Below are positions 4,385 through 39,395 of a stretch of 64,000 bases of DNA, piece by piece. Both the position numbers and the translations under genes were made by a program. The stretch is from positions 4,444 to 68,443 of IMG/VR virus record IMGVR_UViG_3300017667_000009. The stretch is one strand, 5' to 3'. Origin of the DNA: a virus. How positions within the stretch are numbered: position 1 is the stretch's first letter; each line of letters opens with the position of its first letter. The notes below the pieces were generated by a model. The model did no database searches and was not told where the DNA came from. It saw nothing but the letters and a program-made list of their open reading frames with translations.

Positions 4385-4741
4385 TTATTTTTGTTCGTCT
4401 ATTTTCTTGTTCGCAATGTCGACCGCTTTACCTAGTGCCTTGTAGACTATTGCCTGACCTCCGTAACCGATTACTAAAGCCCCGCCAAAGAATGACAGGT
4501 CTAAGTATTCGAAGCCGATTACACTCGGGGGCGCATAGTTTAAAGTAACAAAGTAAAACAGTCCATAAGCGGCCATGATCCACAAAGAGATAAAAACCGT
4601 TATCCTGTCTGTTTTCCAGAACAGTTTGAACACGTCCTCAAGGGTATCGTCTGGATATAGTTTATCCAGTACAAGGACTTTTTGCCATGCGTTAAATCCG
4701 ATTCCTAGAATCTGAATGATGAAAATTAGTAGATGCTCCAT
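4385..4741 (-). CDS. holin-like membrane protein
   Basis: Three hydrophobic segments, charged C-terminus. Confidence 0.55.
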   Translation of the reverse strand: MEHLLIFIIQILGIGFNAWQKVLVLDKLYPDDTLEDVFKLFWKTDRITVFISLWIMAAYGLFYFVTLNYAPPSVIGFEYLDLSFFGGALVIGYGGQAIVYKALGKAVDIANKKIDEQK

Positions 4742-4753
4742 TTTTAGTTAATG

Positions 4754-5200
4754 TTAAGGTAGCGGACTCCATGAAGGTCTGTTTCCGAAAAATTCTACCT
4801 CCTTAGCGTCTGCCGCTAACTGGAGGTCTGCTGTAAGCTCCGCCCCTGTTTTATCGCTTTGAGTTGATGTTGAAACTTCTGCAACAGCGTTTTCAACAGT
4901 GCATGATGTAACTAGATTATAAAGTGTTTTTGACTCGTCTTCTGGAAATGGTCCGACAACCTCAACTTGCCACGTTCCGTTTCTGTTAGTGTCCTGAGTT
5001 GTGAAATCTGAATTTGTCTTGATAGCATTTTCCCAGTTTGATGTATGTGTATCAACAGCATCAGAAAACGCCTGACTTGGATAAGGAGTAGCGGTTACCC
5101 ACTGGCTGTTTTCACTAGCACTGTGGTTTACATCGATTACTACATTTAGGTTGTAGGGAATGATTGGTGTTCCCTCAGATACAATTGTGAAAGTTGCCAT
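4754..5200 (-). CDS. hypothetical virion-associated protein
   Basis: Acidic Thr/Ser-rich 148-aa ORF at the end of the fibre operon. Confidence 0.55.
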   Translation of the reverse strand: MATFTIVSEGTPIIPYNLNVVIDVNHSASENSQWVTATPYPSQAFSDAVDTHTSNWENAIKTNSDFTTQDTNRNGTWQVEVVGPFPEDESKTLYNLVTSCTVENAVAEVSTSTQSDKTGAELTADLQLAADAKEVEFFGNRPSWSPLP

Positions 5201-5213
5201 AGTTTTATTTTTT

Positions 5214-6719
5214 TTAGTTGTGTATAGTGAATCCGGTTACATCGTTCAAGGTAATTGCGGTGTTATCAGTCGTACCCCTACCTCCAGTTATTGCTACCGT
5301 GATAGCTGTTCCAAAAGCAATACCTCCTTCAAAAGAGATAAACACAGGGTTACTGCTCAATGGTATTGGAATGTCAAGAGTTGCTGGTGTAGTCCCCAAT
5401 GTCGGGGTTACAACGTTAAAAACTTTTAAATAACGCGTTGCTGCATTTGAATTAACCAGTAAAAACCCTATCAATCTACCTGCTGTGCCTTTCACAGTTT
5501 GAACCGCTGGGGTCGCTGGAGAATTTAAAACCGTTGGTGTACCTGCTCCAGTTGCAGATGCACGATATTGAATACCTACGTCACCAATGGCGTTAGTCCC
5601 TGTCGCTAGTGATCCAGTTCCAATGTTAGCGGTTACTGTTCCCGATGAAATAGTAACCGGATTAGTTGTTGACCGTAGTATTTCCACGGGAAGTGCTGTA
5701 CTAACTCCCATAGGTCTAACATCCTGAATTGAAACATCTGTATTAGCGTAGTTAGAAACACTTACAAATCCTATCGTCCAAGTCGTTGCCGTTGGTGCTG
5801 TTGATCCGTTAGCAATTCTTATTTGAAGCCTTAGATTTACATCGTCAGGAATATTTTCAACCCTTGTCGCTCTTACGCTTTGTTGAATAGTAGCAGCACT
5901 AGCAACTAACTGATCGGCAAAAGTTGCTACTAAATCATTTCCTGTAATAACTGCTATGTGACCAGGTGAAGCGGTTGTGTTGATCGTTGGAGATGAAACG
6001 CCTGTCGCATAGCCTTTCCGTTGCGTGTCAAAGTTTGCAACCGTGGCCGTTGCGCCCGTGTAGTGTAGCTGATAGTAACTCCAACCAAAAGCTGAACAAG
6101 TCCCTGTGCCTGCGGCAAAACCTGAAACAGTAAATGTTATGTTGTCCCCGCTTACAGATGCAATAGGGTAGCGTCCAGAAAGGAATGTTCCTGTTCCTGA
6201 AAACAAACCTAAATACATCGACTGCCCTACGTTTTCAGAAGTAAATCCGTGACTGCCAGTAAATGTTACTGTAATCGCTGTCGCTGAACTTATGGTATAG
6301 GTTAGCCCATCACCAATTACATCTACTAATTCAACAAAAAAGTTATTGTTTGCATTACGTTGTGATAGCGTTGATCTAGCTCTTACTCTTACACCGCCTT
6401 GCCATGAATCGTTTGAACGGATAATAGTTTCGCTTCGTGCTGTTGTTCCTGCTAAAACTATCAAGTTTCCACCAGTTTGATCTACATCCATCCCAGCCCC
6501 AATGCCTCCAACAATTGTTCCCCATTCAGAGTCTACCGAGTTGCTTAATGTTTTTGTAAATCCAATACGATCAATTTCTTGAGGGGCTTGCCTTACAACT
6601 ATGCCAACTTCGTCACCTTGTGGTGGCGTGTTTAGTCTAGTTCCGGCTCCGTTGTAAGGTGGCCCCGCTTGACCAAATGCAGCCGTTGAGATTAAAAGAA
6701 AGAAAAGTATTTTTTTCAT
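5214..6719 (-). CDS. beta-rich fibre/structural protein with N-terminal Sec signal peptide
   Basis: MKKILFFLLISTAAFG/Q; Gly/Thr/Ala-rich; located in the fibre cluster. Confidence 0.65.
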   Translation of the reverse strand: MKKILFFLLISTAAFGQAGPPYNGAGTRLNTPPQGDEVGIVVRQAPQEIDRIGFTKTLSNSVDSEWGTIVGGIGAGMDVDQTGGNLIVLAGTTARSETIIRSNDSWQGGVRVRARSTLSQRNANNNFFVELVDVIGDGLTYTISSATAITVTFTGSHGFTSENVGQSMYLGLFSGTGTFLSGRYPIASVSGDNITFTVSGFAAGTGTCSAFGWSYYQLHYTGATATVANFDTQRKGYATGVSSPTINTTASPGHIAVITGNDLVATFADQLVASAATIQQSVRATRVENIPDDVNLRLQIRIANGSTAPTATTWTIGFVSVSNYANTDVSIQDVRPMGVSTALPVEILRSTTNPVTISSGTVTANIGTGSLATGTNAIGDVGIQYRASATGAGTPTVLNSPATPAVQTVKGTAGRLIGFLLVNSNAATRYLKVFNVVTPTLGTTPATLDIPIPLSSNPVFISFEGGIAFGTAITVAITGGRGTTDNTAITLNDVTGFTIHN

Positions 6720-28099: not shown

Positions 28100-29892
28100 A
28101 CGCAGGAGAAGCAGTCTTTCAAGGTCGCGAAGGCACTGGGTTAGCCCAAATCCTACATTGGCAAGACGCCAAGTCCATTAATGTTCCGTGGCAGCAAATT
28201 GCCATGCAGAAAGCCAATGAAAGAAGGTTGGCTCTTGAGCAACAAAAAATGCGTGATGATTATGTGGACAAGCTTAAAACCATGAAGCACGAGGGGCGAG
28301 ATTACTTTGCTGAAGAGGGAACTGCCGACATTCAAAACTATTTAGCCAATTATTCAACAGCTCTAGGCCAATCTAACGACATTAACTCCGCAGGCAAGGC
28401 CACGGTTGATCAACTCAATGAAATTCAACAAAACCAGGCTAAGCAAAAAGCTTCCGTAGAACTTGAAAAACAAGTTGAGCAATCGATAAAAGCCGACCCT
28501 TTTGCAGACGATGAATTTGCTAGTACAAAAATTAAAGAGTACAACTATCCCATAAGCAAGAAGACAGCAGACCTCAATATGGAGGGGCTTAACAACTTAG
28601 TTGGAAGTCCGCGCGTTTTCGATAAATCTAAATATGTAGAGGCCTTTGTAAAACCGATTAAGGAAATGGCCGCCACACAAAACTACCAGGGCCTAATGAA
28701 TACCCCTCTAGGTCAGTATGTGGTTATGGAAGGTAATAAGGCTCGATTCGGGACTATAAAAGACGGAAAAGCCGTTGCTGAAATTCCCGAAGGACTGATT
28801 GATGTGGCTCTAAATGAAAGGTATTCAGACAGGATTCGCTTTGACCTAGCAAAACAGCAAATTCAACAAGGTTACACCGATAAAAACGGAAACAGAATAC
28901 CTCCAGACCCAACAGTTAATGAAAAACTAGAGGGTGATTATGGTGACATACTTCAGAGGTTTAATGAAATACGCTACGACAAGCAATACGCTCCAATGGT
29001 TCGTGATCAGGTGAGAAAAGACCTTTCCGCATTTAACCAAATCACAGAAAGAGACGCTATTTCAGGCAGTATGAAATACCCCTCCGCAAGAAATGGTTAC
29101 GGAAACCAAAACACCGCCCCGAAAATAAGCGAAGGCACGGTAACACGAATCTCAAAAGATGCCAACACAGTCTTCAAAAACAACGGACTGGTAGCGGTAG
29201 AGGGGCCATCGGTCGATCTTCAGGGGATGCTAAAGGCATCCGATCGAAAACTAACACTGGCAGACAAAACCGGAGACCTGATCGGGTTCGGCCCAGATCC
29301 AAACACCGGGAAGAAATCCATTATCCTTCGTGGTAAGGAGAATAAATTCACTGGTAAGTATGATATCCAATACGCACCGTTTGATGAGGCCAACCGAAAT
29401 GCGATCGTAAAATACAACTCAAGTCTTTCCAAGGTTGCAGATGAGTACTCTAAAATGCCAGAGAAGAACTATCATGTAGACGATGAAAAGATAGACGGGG
29501 TAGTTGAGCAGATTAAGACCGCTGTAAAAGCAGGTAAGGACGATAGCGACACCACAACTAAATTGCAACAAGTGTTGAGCGAAAACGGAATTAAAGTTCC
29601 CGCAGATATGATTGAGGTGGATAAGACCATGTTTGGCAAACTGGGAACCGATGACCTGAAAATCAATGGCGAGAAGTTTCCTATGAATGAGAAGGGACTA
29701 GCAGAGCTGAGGCGCTACATAATTAACAACGACATTAAAGGCGATAATCCTAAAATGCAGTTCGTGAAGGAGAGAGGGGCTCAAAAGGAACAACCAGCAA
29801 ACAATCAAGAAGACTTTGATACCCAGTGGTCAAAACTTAAACCTGGAGAAACCCTAGTGGGTCCAGACGGCAAAACCTACAAGAAAAAATAA
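28096..29892 (+). CDS. putative internal virion/ejection protein
   Basis: 598 aa, second of three coupled genes of increasing size. Confidence 0.6.
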   Translation: MNAGEAVFQGREGTGLAQILHWQDAKSINVPWQQIAMQKANERRLALEQQKMRDDYVDKLKTMKHEGRDYFAEEGTADIQNYLANYSTALGQSNDINSAGKATVDQLNEIQQNQAKQKASVELEKQVEQSIKADPFADDEFASTKIKEYNYPISKKTADLNMEGLNNLVGSPRVFDKSKYVEAFVKPIKEMAATQNYQGLMNTPLGQYVVMEGNKARFGTIKDGKAVAEIPEGLIDVALNERYSDRIRFDLAKQQIQQGYTDKNGNRIPPDPTVNEKLEGDYGDILQRFNEIRYDKQYAPMVRDQVRKDLSAFNQITERDAISGSMKYPSARNGYGNQNTAPKISEGTVTRISKDANTVFKNNGLVAVEGPSVDLQGMLKASDRKLTLADKTGDLIGFGPDPNTGKKSIILRGKENKFTGKYDIQYAPFDEANRNAIVKYNSSLSKVADEYSKMPEKNYHVDDEKIDGVVEQIKTAVKAGKDDSDTTTKLQQVLSENGIKVPADMIEVDKTMFGKLGTDDLKINGEKFPMNEKGLAELRRYIINNDIKGDNPKMQFVKERGAQKEQPANNQEDFDTQWSKLKPGETLVGPDGKTYKKK

Positions 29893-32800
29893 TGGGCAAA
29901 AAACTCAAATGGACTCCACCGGCCGATGCAGTCGCAGTTGAGGATAATCCAGTTAAATGGACGCCTCCTCAAGATGCTGAGCCTGTAATGGCCAATGGCC
30001 TCACCGAAGAACAAGATAAGCAGAAGTCGCTCGCGGAGTTAACCACACCCAAAAAAACAGGCCGCGAAGCCGAGTTAGAAAGTGCCTCCGCCTTTGTAAA
30101 GCCTTTTGTAGACTTTGGTAAAAAGGCATGGTCAGCCCTTACCGACATGCTGCCAAGCGGGGTAGCCGCGGGCGAAGCGGGTATGATGCGCTCTAAAAAC
30201 GCATTCGAAGATAAAATTGTAAACGAAGCCTACCCTTCAACCTCAACACCAGCCGGGCCAGTGGCGCCATTTGTTACGGACGAAATGCGCAAAGCGGCCA
30301 TTGAAAACTACTCTAAAAAAGTAGGCGCAGACTCATTTCAAAAAGAAAAGCAAGGTTTTGAAGGTGCCATTGATACCCGAAAACTAGGCTTGTTAGATTA
30401 CTCCCGTCAGCAAGACAAAGAATCCGCAGAAAACACAAAAGGCGTAATTCAAGACACGAAGGATATCAAAGATATTTCGACCGCTGCATCTTACGTGGCG
30501 GGCGCAATGGGTAATGTCATCGGTCTGGCGCCAGCAATGGTAGTTCCTATATTTCCCTATCTTATGGAAAAGGGAGAAGCGTACAAAGGTGGATTGTCAG
30601 AAATCGAAAAAGCCACTGGTAAATCGGAAGAGCAAATCCTGAAAGAAGACCTCGACAAAACAGCCAGAGACAATTCAGATATAAGCGGTGCTGTTAATAC
30701 CGCCCTGGAAGGACTGGGTACTCTTTCTGTATTCGGAAAGTTCATACCAAAATCTCTCTCTGTAAAACTCATTACCAAAATATTTAAAAGCCGGTTTGGT
30801 GGAATTACAGCTGGGGCAATTGGTGAAGGTGGAACGGAAGCAATACAGGCGCTAAATACCAAACTAGCCGCTAAGATGTCAACCGGTAAGTACAATGATA
30901 TTTTTGAGGCCGCTAATGATTTGACCGATCAGGAAATTGAAGAGATAAAGCAAGAAGGATTTGCAGGTGCCGTAGGTGGAGGAGGAATGTCTGCAACATC
31001 GCAGTTAATTAGTAAAAACGAAAATGAACCGAGTATTGAACCAACAACTCAGGAAGCGCCTAGTAACCCTGTTCAACGCCCTGAAGAAGCGGCCCAACCA
31101 ACAGTTGTTCAACCAGTACAACCAAGTGCTCAAGAAGTTGCAAAACCAGTAGAAAATATTAATTTAGCACCCGATGGAAAAGAAAATAAAGTTGACCCCG
31201 AAGCACGAGGAGCACAACAAGAAATCACTGGAATCAGTCAAGAAGATGCCGAAAATGTCACCCGAGGAGTTCAAGAAGCAAGCCCAACGACTGAAGGCGC
31301 ACAGAGAAGCGAACGGCAACTAAAAAAAGATCAAGATCAGGAGCTTGAGGCCTACGCCAAGAAAACCGGAACTTTCATTGAAGATCCTAAAGAAGCGTTT
31401 GGTGAAAAACTTGCCGGTGGTGCCGAGCAAGATGTTTACCTAAGCAAAAATGGCGATAAAGTCATAAAGGTAAACGGCCTCACAAATCACGGTGGATGGG
31501 CAGACTTTTGGGATAGGCTTACACTTCAAAAAGAACTTTTCCCCAGCACTGCATATAATTTAATTGGCTTTACAAAATCAGGTGGTAGGCTGTCTGCTAT
31601 CTCAGAGCAAAACCGAATAATTGGTACCGAAGTACCCCGTCAGGAATTAATTCAAAACCTTGCCGAAAAAGGATTTTATCAAATCCACCCAGAAGGCTCA
31701 CCCGGTCAGAATCAATTCTACAATCCGGAGTCAGGTGTAAGGCTTAGCGATGTTCATAGCGAAAACGTACTGAAAGACGCTGACGGAAACATTCAGTACA
31801 TCGATCCTATGCTCGACCGCGAAAATCCTTTCGTGGATGAAGAAAGCCAAAAGTATTTCAACGAGCAGAAGGCTAAATACGCAGAAGAAATAAAACCGCA
31901 AAGCCCCTCCGCGATAGAAGGGAAAAAACCAATCTCTACAACCGATGGCAAAGTCAACCAAGGGGGGCAAGGGCGGCAAGAAGGGCTGCTAACTCCACAA
32001 GAAAAGGGAGAGGTTAAAAAAACCTCTCCTGTTTCTAATTTAGTCACCGAAGGTATTGACGACCTAAAGGAAATTGCAAAGGCAGAAAAAGCTACCCCAC
32101 TCACCGATGAGCAGGAGAAGCAAGCTATTGAAATTGCCAAAAAGTACAATAACGAAGTAAAAAATCCTTCCAAGACTGGTAAGGAAGTGGTCATAGCTAA
32201 TTCTTTCGAAGAAAGTATAAATATTGGCAAATACGGAGACAAAAACGCCATCCGTCCGGGTATGGCTAAATCCTACAAGATCAGCAAAAGCGGAACGCCA
32301 ATAGACAAAATTGCTCAAAAGGCTAGTCATTCCTTTGATGGCTCCGAAACATCTATTTCCCCTGATGATGTATGGCAATTTATGGTGGACCACAACAGTG
32401 GACCTAATACAATCTACACTCCCGCAGGAAACCCAGTACTAAAAGACCTATCAGATCAATTCACCAAAATAGCCGGCAAGGGGATTAATCGAAAAACACT
32501 TAAAGCTTTCTTGTCTAATATGGCCGAGAAGTACGGTTCTATTGACAGCGTTGGGCGTTTTGTGGATAAATATTACGTGGATGGCGTATTGGATGTTGAA
32601 AAAGTAAAAAAAGACATTGATAATGATCCTGATTTCCAAGAAAATAACCAACTTAGCGATTACGAATTTCAACTTTTAACAGAAGATATTTATGGACAAC
32701 AAGAGCAAGGCGGAGAATTACAGCCAATTCCTGGTAACCTCGATCAACAGGGCGGCAGACAAGAGAGCAAGACTGGCACAGAAGGAGGAGCGATTCAGGC

Positions 32801-35800
32801 AGAGTTTGGGGATCAGACTACAAGTGCCGAAGAGCGAGTCGCAGAAATAACTTCTCAGCCACTCACGCACGTTCCCGGCCTAAATATGGGCAAGGGGCTT
32901 GTCTCGGGCACATACCTAAGCACCGAAAAAGATAACAGGTACGAAGGCACTCCGCAGAAGGCAACCGTCAAAATAAAGAAGCCATTTGTATTTAAGGATG
33001 AGAATGCAATCATTCCGCTACGAAACAAAATCCTTCAAGAGAACAAAGATAAATTTACGGCAGACGATCTCGAGAATCCGTTTGGCGAACTCGAATCGAT
33101 AGATGACCTTAATGATGCCGGTATAGATAAGCTGGCCGAAATGGTACGTGAGCGTTTACGTACCGAAGGTTTTGATAGCGTTTACCTCCCCTCTACCGAA
33201 ACTCAGGAAGGTGAACTAATCGTGTTCGATCGTGAAAACGTAGACATTGAAGCCGGCTTGCAGAAAGTAGAAGAAGGCTCCCAAGAATTACTTGGCCCAT
33301 ACCAGTTAGAAGCCCTGCAACGGATAAATAAAGCTCAGGGAGACTTACTGGCAGCCGAAAAAGCGTACAAAGCAAAAAAAGATACCCTCGCAAAGTCAAT
33401 TACCGAAGATCAAATTGATATATTCGGTAACCGTAATGGCGATGAGGGGAAATTGTTCCAACAGAGCGCAGCAGACCGTGATCAAGTCAAAAAACAACTA
33501 GACGAGCTTCAGCGCAGAGTAGACAAAGCAAGGCAAGAACTAGAGTCCGCCAAAAGCAGTTTAAAGAAAGCAATCGAGGCCGATAAAAATAGCTTATTCA
33601 AAGATGAAAAAACCAAAAAAACAACCGAAGGAGTACCCTACCTCTCAAACCCTTCCGCCAACTACGGCACAGGTAATTCCTCCGTACAACGGAAAGATTC
33701 ACCCAGTAACGGTATCGGTTCTTCAATAAAGGCCGTTTGGAATAAGTTCAAAAACATTCAGTTTACCGGCACTACTCGGGTAACATCCGCAGCAGACGTA
33801 GCCGACATAATGAGGCTACTCGAAGATAAATCGGTAGAGCACTCATTTGCCGTTCACGTAGACCAAGACGGCAATAGCCACATTCAGTTTCTTTCCCTTG
33901 GCGTAACCGCGGGAACGGTAGTAGATGCTAAATTAGTTTTAGCAGGAGTAACCAAATTCAATTCAAAGAAGGTGTACCTGGTGCATAATCATCCTTCTGG
34001 AAATCTTGACCCTAGCCAGTCAGATATTGTCCTTACCAACAAGATAAAAAGCGGACTTCAAGACATTGGCGTAGATTCCGAGCACCTTATCATGGATACC
34101 TACAAAAAAGAGTACACTATCATAAACGGAAAAAACTCAAAACAGTATAAGCGGAAAGATCGTCAGGATGGAGTGCCATTGGAAACTCATATAATGGATG
34201 AGCAAACTATCTTAAAAGTCCCCCAAACACAAATTAAAGACTCAAGAGATATAGCCACGTTTGTCCAGCAGCTTCAGTACACCGCCATGCCAAAGAATGC
34301 GGTAATACTACTTAATATAAAAAATCAAATAGTTGGCAACTACGTGTTTCAAGATGGCATTGACCTAAAACAATTAACTCAATGGATAGGCGAATCCGCC
34401 ACCGTTATGTCAGTTGTTTTTTACGGTAATCAAAATAACACTCTTCAGGTAAATCAAGCCACGAGCACATTAAAAAACCTAGATGTTAATGTGTTGGATT
34501 ATATCGTAACCGGAAGCAACAGCCAAAGCATACAAGGGTATTATAAATCCATGAGTGACGGAACGCTCCGTGAAGATCAGGAAAAATACGGCACCAACAA
34601 TGTAAACAACCCAGACCGCAAGGCATCTATTAAAAACGCCTTACTCAAAATTGCCAAGGGATTAATTCAGTCTAAGCAAGCAACTCCAGATAACGTAATC
34701 GAAAAATTACGCGAATACCTTAAAGGAAAAAGATTTGGCGTGACTGCTAAAGAAATAGATCAGTCTATAAAATCATTTAATAGATACGATAAGGAAAAAC
34801 TCACCGAATTTGCAGAGTTCGTAAAAAAGGAAGAGGGAGATCAAGTCACTGATAAAAAAAGCGTTCAAAAAGTAATGCAAGATGTGTTTGGGCTATCCGA
34901 AGAAGAATCCCAGTCCACCGCTGAGGTTTACGATGCCGTTCTTTCCGCTATTGCCAATAGACAAGGCACAACGCTCGAAGAGCAATATCAAAAGATTAAA
35001 TTCAGTAAAGCCGATAAGGAGTTAGCTGATGCATTAGCGCAAAACCCAGCCGTTAAATACCAGATTTCACTCTTCCACTCAAGCCCATATCTGTTTGATA
35101 AATTTCGCTTGAGTGAAGTTGGCAAAGGTGTTGGTCAACAAAAACTAGGATACGGACTGTATTTCTTAGATCAGGAAGGGCCAACAAGAGGTTATGCAAC
35201 CTATCCATTTGTTTCAAAAATACTCCCTCAATTTTTCAAAAAATACAAAGCCGGAAAGATAGATGTTGCCGAACGATTAGCCTATGACTTTGGAGGTGAT
35301 CTTGCGATATATAAAAATCAGCTGGCAAAAGAGGGTAAAAAACTTTTTGGGGCGAGTCAGGCAACGAACGAGTTATCACAACTGGAATCACTTGAGCAAG
35401 AAATAAATAAAAGAGGTTTAGGCACCTTCACATACAAAGCCAGCGCCCACCAAGGCAAGTCTCCCGATCAATATGACTACTTGGATGGGAATACCCCGTT
35501 AACTGCAAAGCAAGTCGAAAAACTTGCCAACTCCGGTATTTCAGTAGAAGGCATGACTGGCCAGCAGGCGTATGATGCAATCGCGAAGGAAAGAGGAGGC
35601 CAGAAACAAGCGTCTGAGTTCTTATTAGAAAATGGAATTGATGGCATAACCTATTCCGATGAGGCTATGTTTGTAGACAAATCTCGCGCTAAAGGAAGCA
35701 AGGTTTATGTGGTGTTCGATGATAATGCGGTTTCCATAGAGGAGACAATAAAGTTTCAGCGTGACGCAGAGAGGGTCAAAGGAGCCATGCGCGACATGAT

Positions 35801-38800
35801 GAACGGACAGGCAATTATTTACGCGCTAACCAATCCAGATGTCTCCACACCGGTTCATGAACTCGCGCACATATACGAGAATTATTTAAGCTCAGCAGAA
35901 CGTAAGGATATTTTAGAATGGTCAGGTCAAAAAGAATGGAACGTTGAGACAAGCGAAAACTTTGCCCGTGGTTTCGAGCAGTATTTGAAAGATGGACAGG
36001 CGCCTAATTCCAAATTACAACAGGCATTCGAAAACTTCAAAAAGTGGCTAAATGATATCTACCAAAATATCAATCCGTCTAAGATAGAATTAAACGCAAA
36101 GATGAAGGGAATCTATGCGCAAATGACGGATGTAAAAGCGTCTGAAAATAAAAGTCAGAAGCAAAAACCAGCACCCAAATCCGCAGAAAGTAATCAATCC
36201 ATAGAATCCTCTAAAAAAGAACGGACTATTGCCAAGCGGTACCTGTCAGATGAATCCGTATCTGATGAAGTTAAACAAGGTCTTTCCCAAGAGGGCCGTT
36301 ACTACATTCCCACTACTGATTTAACTCGCCAGGCCGAAGCCGATGCATACATTGAAGAAAAAGGCATTGATCAGTCCATTGCAGATATTACAGATCCTAA
36401 CAACGGATTGTCTGATCAAAATAGAATATTTATTGGTAAGACTATTTACGCTCAGCTCAAGCAGGAGGTAAAAACATCCGAAACACCCAACGCGGTAAGG
36501 GATAAAATTAACCGGTTAGTAGAGGAAATCGCCAAACTAGGCACTAGGGCTGGCCAAACAGTGCAGGCCTTTGCCAATATGTTTGCCTCCGATGCCGAAC
36601 AAGTAGCTTACTCTCTCACAAAAGAGTACAACAAAAGCCGTAATGAGGCCCTAGACATCAACAAGGCCAATGTAGATGATCTCATTTCTTTAATCCTAGA
36701 TAAAGCCCCAAAAGAGGCGCTGCAGTCACTATTGAGCGATCCCCGAATTAAAGCAATCCTAGACGAGTCAAAAAAATCAGAAAACCTCCGTCAGTCCAAG
36801 CGTAAACAGTTCACTCAAAAAGTACTTAATAAACTTGACGAAATTGAAAAGCAGATTGATGATAGCATTAAAAGTGGCCGGGTTAATTTAGACTTTTCTA
36901 TGGGCCTACTGCCGCTGACTTACAAGGCAGCGATTAATACTATTCGGTTAGCGGTGAAAGCCGGAGATAGCCTAGCTGATGCCGTTGAGAAGGCAATAAA
37001 CGAGGTAAAGCAAAACAATAAAGATTGGGATGAGTCCGACTTCCGCAAGCAATTTGCATCTGATATTAAAGAGGAGCGCAAGGCCGATCGCAAAACCCTG
37101 TTAGAATACCTTCAGGGAGAGAGTTTTAAAGACCTGGCCATTGGGCATTACAAAACCCTAAATTCTAAAAAGCAAGAACTTCAGGAGGCGTTAGAGAAAG
37201 ATTTAGAGCCCAGTGAAGCCAAGCGATTAATGGACACGCTCGAAAAAATAGTAGGCGAAAAGCGCCAGAAGCTAATTGAGCAAAAATTTGGATCTAAACT
37301 ATCACTTCCAAAAAAGAAGAGATTGGTTAAGCAAATGGCCGACAAGATCAAAGAATTTACAGATTTAGGCGTTCTTTCCGATAAGAAATTAAGAGATGCT
37401 TATCTGGAATCCATCGAGCTCCCCGCTATCAGCGATGAGCAAAGTAAAAAACTTGAAGAGTTAGTGGAAAGAGCCGAAGCAAAGCCAATGGGCTGGCAGC
37501 GTTTCGAAGCCGTGCAGGACATTATCAGGTACCATCAACAAGTTACCCCTTTAAGTTGGGGCTCAGTGGTTGAAAGCATCTGGTATGCCAATATGCTTTC
37601 CAGTCTTTCTACCCACAAGGTAAACTTCGAGGCCAACGCAGTTCGCACCATGGCAGAAACATTTGTTTCCTCCGTGCAGTCTGTAATTGAGTATAAGAAT
37701 CCAAAGGTGGCATTCAAAAACATCTCTTTCCAACTCAAAGGTTTGGTAGAGGGGTATAATAGAAATTTGAAGGAGGCGGCTAACATTTTAAAGAATGGCT
37801 ACTACCCTGTAAAGTCAAACAAGTTCGAAGGCTTTGCGGGGGTAAAGACGTCACAGGCATCTGTTTTGGAGGTGCTTAATAAAAAAAATCCTCTCAGCTG
37901 GTGGAGGTACGTTGGCAGGTTACTAACCGCTACTGATATTCTCTTTTATGGAGGGTTGAAACACATGCGGGCGCACCAGCTTGCTTTCCGAGAAGCGTAT
38001 AGCAAAAATCAAAATACGTTCGATAAAACCACGTTAGCGAAAGCAAACGAGTTAATAGGCAGGACCTCCATTCAATTAAATGCAGCCCAAACCCGTGCAG
38101 AGTCCGAAGGATTAACTGGCAAGCAGAAGAACAGAAGGATATATGAGATCATGGAACAGTCATGGTCCGAACTTAACCGTGAAGACGCGACTAGCTTTGC
38201 GGTCAAAGGAACGTATAACCATGAGCCAGAAGGCGTAATGGGGTTATTGTCGAGCAGTATTAGCACCCTCACCACCTCAGTCCCTATCGTTAAAACAGTA
38301 GTCCCTTTTACACGGGTAATTTCTAACGTAGTTAATGATTACCTGGACTACACCCCTTGGGGACTTGTGCGCGCAGCAAAAGGAGGTATGGGAATACCAA
38401 CCAAGCCAAGCTATTCTAAGTTTACCGCAGAGGAGTTACTGAGGGAGAAGATCAAAGCCATATCGGGCTCAATGGCAATGGTTACTCTGTACGCCATGAG
38501 CCAAAGTGAAGATGATGACGAGCCCTTGCTCGAGATCACCGCAGACGGCACCGGTAGTTTTAAAAACAATTTTGAGCTGGCTAGAACTGGCTGGAAAGAG
38601 TACACCGCTAAGATAAAAGGCACTGATATTCGTTTCGATTATCGCAATACTCAATTAGCCATTCCTTTTGCTGTTATTGGTTACATCAACGATTCCAGGA
38701 AGTACAAGAAAGATGAGATGAACGATACCCAAATCGGACTTATCGTTTCAGGAACATTCCACTTTATTTCAGATCTATCTTTCCTTTCCGGAATGTCAGA

Positions 38801-39395
38801 CTTCTTTCAAATACTTAGCGATGATAAAAACTTTGGAGACAAGATCACCAAGTTTGCGGGCCGCACGATAAAAACGGGGTTGGTTCCCAATGCATTCACC
38901 CAGGTAAGCCGAAGCATTCAGGAGATCACCAATACCCCAATGAAAAAGGGGGATAGCTTCTACGCTCAGTTGTTCCGCGACTTCCCGGCCATGCGAGACA
39001 ACTTTGATACCATGTATAATACCCTGGGCGAACCGATTGTCACCGAAACTCTATACAAGTTCAACCCTCTCAAAATGTCTACAATGGCAGATGAGAAGGA
39101 AAAGGATAGCTACAAATTATGGGAGCTTATTTCCAGCACAGGAGCTTACATCGGCACCCCAAGCAAGTCCACTAGAATCTACGACTCATTAACCGGTGTA
39201 GATAGAGCCCTAACCCCAGAAGAGTATAACATATACGCTCTGCAGGCAGCCAAATACACCAAAGAGATGCTATTGATTGACTACGATGATCTAGTAACAG
39301 AAACCGATAAAAGGCTGATCAAAGATCGTATCTACCAAATCAAAGAGATGGCCAGAGAGAGAGCTAAAGGGGAATTGTTTGAGTCCATGTATTAA
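29892..39395 (+). CDS. giant polyvalent protein (kinase-like, two ART-like, JAB/RadC, zincin domains), probable ejection protein
   Basis: GGAEQDVY..DVHSENV..IDP; GTYLST..GFDSV..ELIVFD; HNHPSG..PSQSD; FHSSP..GYGLYF..GIDGI..YVVFD; HELAH. Confidence 0.85.
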   Translation: MGKKLKWTPPADAVAVEDNPVKWTPPQDAEPVMANGLTEEQDKQKSLAELTTPKKTGREAELESASAFVKPFVDFGKKAWSALTDMLPSGVAAGEAGMMRSKNAFEDKIVNEAYPSTSTPAGPVAPFVTDEMRKAAIENYSKKVGADSFQKEKQGFEGAIDTRKLGLLDYSRQQDKESAENTKGVIQDTKDIKDISTAASYVAGAMGNVIGLAPAMVVPIFPYLMEKGEAYKGGLSEIEKATGKSEEQILKEDLDKTARDNSDISGAVNTALEGLGTLSVFGKFIPKSLSVKLITKIFKSRFGGITAGAIGEGGTEAIQALNTKLAAKMSTGKYNDIFEAANDLTDQEIEEIKQEGFAGAVGGGGMSATSQLISKNENEPSIEPTTQEAPSNPVQRPEEAAQPTVVQPVQPSAQEVAKPVENINLAPDGKENKVDPEARGAQQEITGISQEDAENVTRGVQEASPTTEGAQRSERQLKKDQDQELEAYAKKTGTFIEDPKEAFGEKLAGGAEQDVYLSKNGDKVIKVNGLTNHGGWADFWDRLTLQKELFPSTAYNLIGFTKSGGRLSAISEQNRIIGTEVPRQELIQNLAEKGFYQIHPEGSPGQNQFYNPESGVRLSDVHSENVLKDADGNIQYIDPMLDRENPFVDEESQKYFNEQKAKYAEEIKPQSPSAIEGKKPISTTDGKVNQGGQGRQEGLLTPQEKGEVKKTSPVSNLVTEGIDDLKEIAKAEKATPLTDEQEKQAIEIAKKYNNEVKNPSKTGKEVVIANSFEESINIGKYGDKNAIRPGMAKSYKISKSGTPIDKIAQKASHSFDGSETSISPDDVWQFMVDHNSGPNTIYTPAGNPVLKDLSDQFTKIAGKGINRKTLKAFLSNMAEKYGSIDSVGRFVDKYYVDGVLDVEKVKKDIDNDPDFQENNQLSDYEFQLLTEDIYGQQEQGGELQPIPGNLDQQGGRQESKTGTEGGAIQAEFGDQTTSAEERVAEITSQPLTHVPGLNMGKGLVSGTYLSTEKDNRYEGTPQKATVKIKKPFVFKDENAIIPLRNKILQENKDKFTADDLENPFGELESIDDLNDAGIDKLAEMVRERLRTEGFDSVYLPSTETQEGELIVFDRENVDIEAGLQKVEEGSQELLGPYQLEALQRINKAQGDLLAAEKAYKAKKDTLAKSITEDQIDIFGNRNGDEGKLFQQSAADRDQVKKQLDELQRRVDKARQELESAKSSLKKAIEADKNSLFKDEKTKKTTEGVPYLSNPSANYGTGNSSVQRKDSPSNGIGSSIKAVWNKFKNIQFTGTTRVTSAADVADIMRLLEDKSVEHSFAVHVDQDGNSHIQFLSLGVTAGTVVDAKLVLAGVTKFNSKKVYLVHNHPSGNLDPSQSDIVLTNKIKSGLQDIGVDSEHLIMDTYKKEYTIINGKNSKQYKRKDRQDGVPLETHIMDEQTILKVPQTQIKDSRDIATFVQQLQYTAMPKNAVILLNIKNQIVGNYVFQDGIDLKQLTQWIGESATVMSVVFYGNQNNTLQVNQATSTLKNLDVNVLDYIVTGSNSQSIQGYYKSMSDGTLREDQEKYGTNNVNNPDRKASIKNALLKIAKGLIQSKQATPDNVIEKLREYLKGKRFGVTAKEIDQSIKSFNRYDKEKLTEFAEFVKKEEGDQVTDKKSVQKVMQDVFGLSEEESQSTAEVYDAVLSAIANRQGTTLEEQYQKIKFSKADKELADALAQNPAVKYQISLFHSSPYLFDKFRLSEVGKGVGQQKLGYGLYFLDQEGPTRGYATYPFVSKILPQFFKKYKAGKIDVAERLAYDFGGDLAIYKNQLAKEGKKLFGASQATNELSQLESLEQEINKRGLGTFTYKASAHQGKSPDQYDYLDGNTPLTAKQVEKLANSGISVEGMTGQQAYDAIAKERGGQKQASEFLLENGIDGITYSDEAMFVDKSRAKGSKVYVVFDDNAVSIEETIKFQRDAERVKGAMRDMMNGQAIIYALTNPDVSTPVHELAHIYENYLSSAERKDILEWSGQKEWNVETSENFARGFEQYLKDGQAPNSKLQQAFENFKKWLNDIYQNINPSKIELNAKMKGIYAQMTDVKASENKSQKQKPAPKSAESNQSIESSKKERTIAKRYLSDESVSDEVKQGLSQEGRYYIPTTDLTRQAEADAYIEEKGIDQSIADITDPNNGLSDQNRIFIGKTIYAQLKQEVKTSETPNAVRDKINRLVEEIAKLGTRAGQTVQAFANMFASDAEQVAYSLTKEYNKSRNEALDINKANVDDLISLILDKAPKEALQSLLSDPRIKAILDESKKSENLRQSKRKQFTQKVLNKLDEIEKQIDDSIKSGRVNLDFSMGLLPLTYKAAINTIRLAVKAGDSLADAVEKAINEVKQNNKDWDESDFRKQFASDIKEERKADRKTLLEYLQGESFKDLAIGHYKTLNSKKQELQEALEKDLEPSEAKRLMDTLEKIVGEKRQKLIEQKFGSKLSLPKKKRLVKQMADKIKEFTDLGVLSDKKLRDAYLESIELPAISDEQSKKLEELVERAEAKPMGWQRFEAVQDIIRYHQQVTPLSWGSVVESIWYANMLSSLSTHKVNFEANAVRTMAETFVSSVQSVIEYKNPKVAFKNISFQLKGLVEGYNRNLKEAANILKNGYYPVKSNKFEGFAGVKTSQASVLEVLNKKNPLSWWRYVGRLLTATDILFYGGLKHMRAHQLAFREAYSKNQNTFDKTTLAKANELIGRTSIQLNAAQTRAESEGLTGKQKNRRIYEIMEQSWSELNREDATSFAVKGTYNHEPEGVMGLLSSSISTLTTSVPIVKTVVPFTRVISNVVNDYLDYTPWGLVRAAKGGMGIPTKPSYSKFTAEELLREKIKAISGSMAMVTLYAMSQSEDDDEPLLEITADGTGSFKNNFELARTGWKEYTAKIKGTDIRFDYRNTQLAIPFAVIGYINDSRKYKKDEMNDTQIGLIVSGTFHFISDLSFLSGMSDFFQILSDDKNFGDKITKFAGRTIKTGLVPNAFTQVSRSIQEITNTPMKKGDSFYAQLFRDFPAMRDNFDTMYNTLGEPIVTETLYKFNPLKMSTMADEKEKDSYKLWELISSTGAYIGTPSKSTRIYDSLTGVDRALTPEEYNIYALQAAKYTKEMLLIDYDDLVTETDKRLIKDRIYQIKEMARERAKGELFESMY
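31024..31152 (+). CDS. nested +1-frame ORF A (42 aa)
   Basis: MNRVLNQQLRKRLVTLFNALKKRPNQQLFNQYNQVLKKLQNQ; A-rich upstream sequence. Confidence 0.45.
   Translation: MNRVLNQQLRKRLVTLFNALKKRPNQQLFNQYNQVLKKLQNQ
31174..31323 (+). CDS. nested +1-frame ORF B (49 aa) before kinase domain
   Basis: MEKKIKLTPKHEEHNKKSLESVKKMPKMSPEEFKKQAQRLKAHREANGN. Confidence 0.45.
   Translation: MEKKIKLTPKHEEHNKKSLESVKKMPKMSPEEFKKQAQRLKAHREANGN
32692..32850 (+). CDS. nested +1-frame ORF D (52 aa) before ART-like domain
   Basis: MDNKSKAENYSQFLVTSINRAADKRARLAQKEERFRQSLGIRLQVPKSESQK; AT-rich upstream sequence. Confidence 0.45.
   Translation: MDNKSKAENYSQFLVTSINRAADKRARLAQKEERFRQSLGIRLQVPKSESQK
33604..33729 (+). CDS. 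nested +1-frame ORF E (41 aa) before JAB domain
   Basis: MKKPKKQPKEYPTSQTLPPTTAQVIPPYNGKIHPVTVSVLQ. Confidence 0.35.
   Translation: MKKPKKQPKEYPTSQTLPPTTAQVIPPYNGKIHPVTVSVLQ

Follow-up and report, generated by a model that had tools for sequence, protein, structure and literature searches.

The question raised by this locus is whether a giant phage gene carries small genes hidden in a second reading frame, and what such genes would do. The window analyzed here is a stretch of 64,000 nucleotides from the IMG/VR virus record IMGVR_UViG_3300017667_000009 (positions 4,444 to 68,443). The whole record (G000) has 68,443 bases, is classed as a provirus by IMG/VR, and has an estimated completeness of 89%. 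Near-identical DNA is present in at least 20 freshwater and lake metagenome runs from 11 studies, among the runs listed, and one of these runs may be the source of the record. The host gene, at 29892-39395 on the plus strand, is the longest open reading frame (ORF) of its region and encodes a polyvalent-type giant protein of 3167 codons. A first-pass annotation made from the sequence alone described five ATG-started ORFs, A to E, in the +1 frame of this gene, and proposed that they are inhibitors, immunity proteins or chaperones, one for each toxic module that follows. Comparison with relatives suggests a narrower answer. A and B are probably real overprinted genes, judging from how their sequences have changed. 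The explanation as a whole, in which both genes are written over a movable kinase cassette and B is a hairpin subunit that binds the kinase, is favored with some reservation.

All five ORFs are present inside the host gene with the coordinates and lengths first described, but their lengths do not exceed those expected by chance. Taking the host gene as frame 0, an ORF is in the +1 frame when its start minus 29892 leaves a remainder of 1. All of them lie on the plus strand: A at 31024-31152 (42 amino acids), B at 31174-31323 (49 amino acids), C at 31945-31992 (15 amino acids), D at 32692-32850 (52 amino acids), and E at 33604-33729 (41 amino acids). Each has its own start codon and is fully contained, out of frame, in a longer ORF, as embedded genes are defined. 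Synonymous codons were permuted across the whole host gene in 2000 shuffles. The longest ATG-started ORF observed in the +1 frame has 52 amino acids, while the mean of the shuffled genes is 72. Seven +1 ORFs of at least 40 amino acids are observed against 4.7 expected, and 17% of the shuffles attain seven. In shuffled versions of the window, the ATG and the open span are both kept with a probability of 0.14 (A), 0.11 (B), 0.31 (C), 0.12 (D), and 0.38 (E). The annotation had cautioned that linkers poor in stops yield such ORFs by chance, and for a single sequence this is correct. The question can be settled only by comparing relatives.

Homology to a second giant gene suggests that A, B, and the kinase domain form one cassette. 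A protein search with residues 340-1320 of the host protein finds 20 relatives beyond the window's own cluster. P0004-P0008 span the region of A, B, and the kinase, while P0002, P0003, P0009-P0012, P0015, and P0016 span the region of D, and none of the 20 spans ORF E. No DNA relatives of the region are found in the phage collection (blastn and tblastn), in plasmids, or in viral contigs, and the sole match in a metagenome scan, L001, is a 27%-identical relative of the C-terminal region and is uninformative for the linkers. The locus L002 carries the gene of P0006, and tblastn of the whole host protein matches it at residues 378-679 only, with 62% identity. These residues correspond to 31023-31928 on the plus strand, and they hold A, B, and the kinase as a cassette common to the window and an otherwise unrelated giant gene. 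The homology begins within about 10 nucleotides of the ATG of A, and the DNA upstream of that ATG is unalignable; this beginning is what points to a single cassette.

Both A and B are kept in L002, with ATG and stop at homologous bases, which is the retention of +1 starts in homologues that had been put forward as a check. The counterpart of A (A') lies at 5036-5179 and has 47 amino acids, with its ATG on the homologous base, and the counterpart of B (B') lies at 5201-5350, has 49 amino acids, and aligns with B without gaps. The spacer from the stop of A to the ATG of B is 21 nucleotides long in the window (31153-31173, plus strand) and also in L002 (5180-5200). It was described as mostly AT-rich, and in the window A or T is found at 15 of its 21 bases. 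Relative to the window, L002 has indels of 3, 3, and 12 nucleotides in the region of ORF A and a further 3-nucleotide indel in the spacer. In a very small sample, a B-like ORF occurs only beside the kinase, in G000 and G001. G009 has no B-like ORF, and no kinase match is found there either. The kinase family, PF18762, is found in one of the 401 genomes of the phylum of G001, namely G001 itself.

The retained starts bear on the idea that ribosomes reach A or B by frameshifting out of frame 0, so that the giant protein would have truncated isoforms ending in a different tail. This idea has no direct support and is scarcely credible. Upstream of A' in L002, at least 8 codons of the +1 frame are free of stops, but in the window the ATG of A is preceded by a +1 stop at a distance of 6 codons, and two stops lie between A and B. 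Both ATGs are kept at the homologous base in L002, and the relatives of B are called as separate genes with the same start methionine.

The differences between B and B' suggest that the +1 frame has been under purifying selection. Over 49 codons the ratio of non-synonymous to synonymous differences per site (pN/pS) is 0.37 in the +1 frame (Fisher test, 6e-4), 0.86 in frame 0, and 1.07 in the +2 frame, so the frame-specific test proposed for these ORFs comes out in favor of B. The +1 frame has 15.0 synonymous differences over 26.8 sites (pS 0.56) and 25.0 non-synonymous differences over 120.2 sites (pN 0.21). In a neutral simulation, 15 or more +1-synonymous differences arise in B with a chance of 0.006. 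Frame 0 of the same stretch has a pS of 0.305 and a pN of 0.264. The kinase domain of the same pair, used as a control, has the opposite pattern, with a frame-0 pS of 0.71, a pN of 0.164, and a ratio of 0.23, against a +1 ratio of 1.18.

Synonymous change in frame 0 is also lower in B than in the kinase domain (pS 0.305 vs. 0.71, Fisher test, 2e-5). The kinase domain has matching frame-0 third positions at 94 of 185 sites, whereas B has them at 41 of 50 (p 8e-5). Where residues are identical, the codons are identical in 21 of 27 cases in B (9.6 expected from codon usage at saturation) and in 73 of 133 cases in the kinase (54.4 expected). In these comparisons the +1 frame of B looks like an ordinary gene as old as the kinase domain, with the synonymous sites of frame 0 frozen beneath it. 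The chance of retaining B' is 0.049 by synonymous shuffling of L002, and 0.25 under neutral drift when the open frame only is counted. Variation within populations was taken from four of the 24 listed freshwater runs, picked for a low word share, and parts of the region are uncovered in some of them. B has no itemised difference in the contigs that cover it, compared with about 1.8 expected from the overall density, and this is not significant.

The two halves of B differ in how they share information with frame 0. In the first half, the window and L002 share 10 of 20 residues in the +1 frame but 5 of 20 in frame 0, whereas in the second half 22 of 30 are shared in either frame, suggesting that the latter half is dual-coding. 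The second half overlies frame-0 residues of about 449-478, which are strongly conserved in all six sequences of an alignment of the window's own protein (cluster representative P0001) and five homologues. The second half of D likewise lies over a conserved frame-0 segment. The statement that each ORF covers one low-complexity linker almost exactly therefore fails for B and D. The placement of B just before the kinase, on the other hand, is confirmed, with its stop at frame-0 residues 477-478 and the Pfam Kinase-PolyVal domain beginning at residue 478. Across A and the first half of B, frame 0 would then be a free-running linker and the +1 frame would hold the selected information, while across the second half of B both frames would be constrained.

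ORF A is likewise a probable overprinted gene. Both peptides are basic, as first described, with net charges of +9 for A and +7 for B, counted from the translations. The chance that A' would have its ATG and open frame is 0.016 by synonymous shuffling of L002 and 0.045 in a neutral simulation at the observed divergence. Smith-Waterman scores for A are 81 in the +1 frame (z 8.9), 63 in frame 0 (z 4.8), and 36 in the +2 frame (z 1.6). The +1 pN/pS of A, computed on a MAFFT DNA alignment that favors no frame, is 0.59 (p 0.05), and for the first two thirds it is 0.43 (p 0.008), while frames 0 and +2 are at about 1. An alignment guided by the +1 frame gives 0.17, but such an alignment is biased towards that frame. 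Identical residues between the window and L002 number 22 of 41 in the +1 frame and 13 of 41 in frame 0. Three leucines of the +1 frame are preserved through CTN to TTA changes, each of which alters two frame-0 residues. In both A and B, within the one pairwise comparison and the one variant contig described next, purifying selection on the embedded frame is accompanied by lowered synonymous change in the host frame.

One population contig gives a second, independent comparison for A. This contig, from run X17, is 151 nucleotides long, covers 31040-31151, and is 89% like the window, with 12 differences, six of them itemised. All six itemised differences in A are non-synonymous in frame 0, and four of the six are synonymous in the +1 frame; the other two replace leucine by methionine and phenylalanine by leucine there. 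The chance that four or more of the six would be silent in the +1 frame is 0.009. The same contig continues with unrelated sequence exactly after 31151, at the stop of A, which is kept as TAA. Recombination at the end of A could have produced this break, or the contig may be a chimera of assembly.

A recombination joint is part of another explanation, namely that 31024-31323 is conserved as nucleic acid, either as a joint for cassette movement or as an RNA structure. The start of the giant-gene homology about 10 nucleotides from the ATG of A, the divergence of the X17 contig after 31151, and the conserved synonymous sites of frame 0 are all in keeping with it. However, the differences are sorted by +1 codon position, with a +1 pS of 0.56-0.84 against a pN of 0.21-0.29, and the three CTN to TTA changes leave the +1 leucines unaltered. 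Conservation as nucleic acid also leaves unexplained a protein family with identities down to 45% and the predicted docking described below, and it is considered improbable.

B belongs to a family of small proteins that is also found as called genes. A word-based search finds P0022, a called gene of 49 amino acids that is 84% identical to B (E 8e-18). A profile built from three B sequences then matches six further called proteins, P0023-P0028, of 48-164 amino acids (E 1e-8 to 2e-17); one long repetitive protein was also matched and was set aside. The family thus has at least nine sequences, with identity down to 45%, and 11 columns are invariant in nine sequences (K6, L7, H11, E13, N15, E20, F33, K34, Q36, L40, and R44). 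P0022-P0028 were compared with +1 readings of the known frame-0 homologues, and none pairs fully; the best agreement, 45-46 of about 50 positions, is with the window's own protein. The tail of P0026 (164 amino acids) fits no frame-0 homologue found. In Pfam and PHROGs no family passes for A, B, D, E, or P0024-P0028, the best match being phrog_12534 (E 1.7e-4) on the tail of P0026, and none passes for the B family. A search of the Atlas with the A and B peptides gives no match of 0.9 or above. The structure model of B, made from nine sequences, is a two-helix hairpin with helices at residues 9-24 and 30-46 and a mean predicted local distance difference test score (pLDDT) of 83.

The kinase domain next to B resembles minimal kinases that work with partners. 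It occupies frame-0 residues 478-640 (31323-31811, plus strand) and matches Pfam PF18762 at E 9e-31, with 107.4 bits against a gathering cut-off of 27, and with 113 bits in the genome search. Its structure model has a pLDDT of 82. In whole-fold comparison the model comes closest, among solved structures, to minimal bacterial effector kinases (OspG, HopBF1, NleH2, and Lpg2603) rather than to full-size kinases, and the matches to OspG, HopBF1, and NleH2 are minimal kinases of 162-176 residues. The similarity is modest, with template modelling (TM) scores of 0.36-0.49 and 13-16% identity. The matching minimal kinases were crystallised with partner proteins or ligands. Iyer et al. 2017 (PMC5512222) describe Kinase-PolyVal kinases as having lost the entire C-terminal subdomain, and the fit of the model to minimal kinases agrees with this loss. 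The lost subdomain and the partner-bound fold matches together fit a kinase for which a bound protein is either required or acts as a gate, and they do not indicate which of the two.

Structure prediction places B on this kinase. The co-folding test that had been suggested, run with B and frame-0 residues 440-680, gives scores of 0.86, 0.86, and 0.85, while the controls, two unrelated partners and one unrelated kinase-side protein, give 0.00, 0.01, and 0.00. The mark used is reached by 58 of 80 solved complexes and by 2 of 110 mismatched pairs, a calibration that holds only roughly here because custom alignments were used. At least 96% of the contacts agree between runs, and the pLDDT of the partner is at least 84. 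The predicted interface involves kinase residues 505-635, including H622-S623-E624 of the D-x-H-x-E-N stretch, and residues 629-635. On the side of B, 12 residues were checked, the 11 invariant columns and the start methionine, and 10 of them make predicted contacts. By sequence, neither chain is related to a solved structure, so the result is not an echo of a known complex. On the strength of these models, it is somewhat likely that B binds the Kinase-PolyVal domain encoded directly downstream.

Several points weigh against A and B as genes and against B as a kinase partner. In the window alone, the five ORFs are not longer than those that synonymous shuffling yields. The substitution statistics for A and B rest on one pair, with L002, plus the one contig of 151 nucleotides, and just six of the 12 differences of that contig are itemised. 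The word-based search with A gave no candidate, and A is without a relative beyond L002. Recognition of the two peptides by a language model is 1928 and 1890, whereas 91 of 100 known families reach 2300. The B family was drawn from a database of called genes, in which intact ORFs alone can appear, and the docking is a matter of model confidence from small, unpaired alignments. Swaps within a chemical class in low-complexity linkers alter mostly first codon positions and so mimic part of the +1 signal; the frozen third positions of frame 0 go beyond what such swaps explain. Finally, the compatibility of non-identical dipeptides is 0.59 for B1, 0.62 for B2, and 0.36 for A, while the kinase control also has 0.59. 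The protein-only test from which these values come, which compares frame 0 of P0004-P0008 with the +1 residues of the window, was far above random offsets, yet it was set aside as uninformative.

Signals for expression are also sparse, and some of them are uninformative. No Shine-Dalgarno site precedes any of A to E. Such sites are found before just two of the 45 largest ORFs of the window, and the leaders of the phage genes are A-rich, so the missing sites carry no weight either way. A match to the motif TANNTTTG, with the sequence TATTTTTG, lies at 30899-30906 on the plus strand, 118 nucleotides upstream of ORF A. As an internal promoter this candidate was rejected: the motif has 75 matches against 67.6 expected, which is chance frequency, and it has no counterpart upstream of A' in L002. 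None of the listed runs with near-identical DNA is on record as RNA.

The simplest rival is that all five ORFs are due to chance. The similarity in the +1 frame would then be a by-product of frame-0 conservation, class-conservative linkers, and a bias for codons ending in A, and the B family would consist of wrong-frame calls on short contigs. This fits with the single-sequence nulls, which are not exceeded, with the position of the second half of B over a frame-0 segment conserved in all six aligned sequences, with a protein-only compatibility that is the same for B and the kinase control, and with the low recognition by the Atlas. A frame-0-only model predicts, however, that third positions change most, and here they change least (41 of 50 matching in B against 94 of 185 in the kinase). 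Neutral simulation rarely gives as many +1-synonymous differences as B has (p 0.006), and the +1 frame is better conserved than frame 0 both in A (22 of 41 vs. 13 of 41) and in the first half of B (10 of 20 vs. 5 of 20). The co-fold passes against three controls, and the P0026 tail fits no frame-0 homologue found. Chance is considered unlikely for these reasons, though it keeps some weight.

The preferred explanation is that A and B are +1-frame genes overprinted on the kinase module's spacer and N-terminal extension, and that together with Kinase-PolyVal they make up a mobile cassette of about 0.9 kb, exchanged between giant genes that are otherwise unrelated. A and B would be translated by internal initiation on the long mRNA. 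B, a 49-residue two-helix hairpin of an unnamed family, is predicted to dock over the catalytic face and loop of the minimal kinase and may act as a kinase subunit. A would be a second, very basic small protein from the same stretch. Writing the partner into the cassette would guarantee that kinase and partner are inherited together.

What B would do to the kinase can be read in two ways. By reasoning only, a slight preference goes to B as a brake or folding partner, which would hold the kinase inside the producing cell and come off upon ejection, because a protein ejected through the tail must unfold and would shed a non-covalent partner. An activating subunit that replaces the lost C-terminal kinase subdomain fits the same data. 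Binding as such is equally compatible with an activating subunit, a structural subunit, or an inhibitor. A broader and rather speculative reading, considered unlikely at present, is that Kinase-PolyVal kinases are two-part enzymes, with a core completed or gated in trans by an out-of-frame hairpin, and that the linkers, that of D included, are dual-coding stretches with service genes for the adjacent domains. An out-of-frame subunit gene in the leader of the module would then make kinase and subunit inseparable during the shuffling of cassettes.

The same evidence does not extend to ORFs C, D, and E. C and E are taken to be chance open frames. C has only 15 amino acids and lies outside the cassette shared with L002, and nothing speaks for it as a gene. 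E is without a homologue among the relatives found, and its two population variants are both silent in frame 0 and both change the +1 residue radically (serine to tyrosine and glycine to glutamate). E does end shortly before the JAB domain, as had been described: its last residue corresponds to frame-0 residue 1280, and the RadC/JAB domain (residues 1298-1402, Pfam, E 8e-17) starts 18 residues on.

ORF D is a doubtful case, and it leans towards a by-product of frame-0 conservation. The locus L004 (genome G009) shares residues 907-1123 with the host protein at 42-47% identity and has a +1 ORF of 58 amino acids at the place of D (1580-1756), with its ATG on the same tyrosine codon. The shuffle chance of this ORF is 0.18, and the L004 gene has +1 ORFs of up to 76 amino acids. 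The frame-specific test, over 22-25 alignable codons, goes against D, with a +1 pN/pS of 1.35-1.39 and a frame-0 ratio of 0.45-0.57. In favor of a gene, the frame-0 pS of the D stretch (0.54-0.59) is below the saturated value of about 1.0 in the next domain. Smith-Waterman scores for D are 59 in the +1 frame (z 8.8) and 56 in frame 0 (z 4.9). Between the window and P0003, on the other hand, frame 0 scores 126 against 94 and is thus at least as similar, which counts against a gene. The single population variant in D is silent in frame 0 and replaces isoleucine by threonine in the +1 frame, where L004 also has threonine.

A fused member of the B family links D-like sequence to B. P0028 is one called ORF of 114 amino acids with a B-like head at residues 8-51 and a D-like tail at residues 53-104 (score 94), and 28 of 30 positions of the tail are compatible with the +1 reading of the linker of P0003. 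This fusion implies a giant gene in which spacers of the B type and the D type abut with no kinase between them. Overall the +1 similarity of D to its relatives can be explained by frame-0 conservation, and a real overprinted gene at D is possible but doubtful. The domain that follows D (residues 715-1125, 32034-33266 in the window) had been described as ART-like, and this is not borne out, as neither an ART family nor any other Pfam family is found there at E up to 1. The domain is conserved in at least eight giant proteins and in L004.

Of the proposal of one dedicated inhibitor, immunity protein, or chaperone for each toxic module, only the idea of binding to the module that follows gains support, and only for B. 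The predicted binding of B to the kinase agrees with it, as do the joining of B-like and D-like sequence in P0028 and the ATG-started +1 ORF of L004 at the place of D. As a general scheme it is unsupported by C, D, and E. Both variants of E are silent in frame 0 and radical in the +1 frame, and the chance of its ATG and open frame is 0.38. D has a +1 pN/pS of 1.35-1.39, and C, at 15 amino acids, is outside the conserved cassette. A precedes B rather than a domain, and is therefore without a module of its own. The full scheme is very improbable.

Small same-strand genes embedded in larger phage genes are known from other systems. The Rz/Rz1 spanin genes of phage lambda and gene E within gene D of phiX174 are small genes embedded in the +1 frame of a larger gene, and the products of Rz and Rz1 work together. 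A and B resemble them in that both ORFs have their own starts and are fully enclosed, in the +1 frame of the same strand, by a larger phage gene. The host gene here differs, being a 9.5-kb multi-domain virion or effector gene, and the putative embedded genes form a tandem pair that lies on a linker and not on a folded domain. The predicted partner is a kinase domain and not a membrane protein as in Rz/Rz1. In Bacillus subtilis, comS is a regulatory gene of about 46 codons that lies out of frame in the giant synthetase gene srfA-B, and ComS acts on competence, a pathway unrelated to its host protein. A and B are similar in being candidate small-protein genes that lie out of frame within a giant gene of many modules. 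Unlike ComS, B is predicted to bind the neighboring domain of the product of its own host gene.

The proposed complex also has counterparts among effector kinases. The partners of OspG and Lpg2603 activate these kinases. As in OspG with E2-ubiquitin (PDB 4bvu and 4q5h) and Lpg2603 with inositol hexakisphosphate (IP6; 6vve), a stripped-down kinase core would have a bound partner, although for B the binding is only predicted. The partners of OspG and Lpg2603 are host molecules, whereas B would come from the element's own DNA, the same DNA that encodes the kinase. The kinase domain itself is like the Kinase-PolyVal of Iyer et al. 2017 (PMC5512222) in lying inside a giant multi-domain phage protein. 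The main text of that paper has no second-frame gene or small partner, and the words 'overlapping', 'linker', and 'frameshift' occur in it 0 times. Embedded same-strand genes are well known, while a small-protein family overprinted on the leader of Kinase-PolyVal was not found described in the portion of the literature searched.

Overprinted genes of this kind would be easily overlooked. Gene callers normally skip nested same-strand ORFs unless frame 0 is interrupted. If A and B are real, every annotation would lack a conserved family of small proteins that giant phage genes conceal. Should B prove to be a kinase subunit, it would provide a handle on the control of a widespread and unstudied class of injected phage kinases. 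It would also show that a stretch encoding a disordered linker in one frame can, at little cost, encode a folded protein in a second frame, and it would explain why the spacer travels with the kinase domain during the shuffling of modules.

Other features of the giant gene lie outside the cassette or on the opposite strand. The C-terminal 1060 residues of the host protein have 58-69% identity with four other giant proteins. Three more ATG-started +1 ORFs are present in the gene, at 34882-35025 (47 amino acids), 35284-35406 (40 amino acids), and 36343-36471 (42 amino acids), and the last of these falls in the conserved C-terminal region of the protein. An antisense ORF of 152 amino acids lies within the gene at 31793-32251 on the minus strand, and stop-free runs in the reverse frames reach 160 codons.

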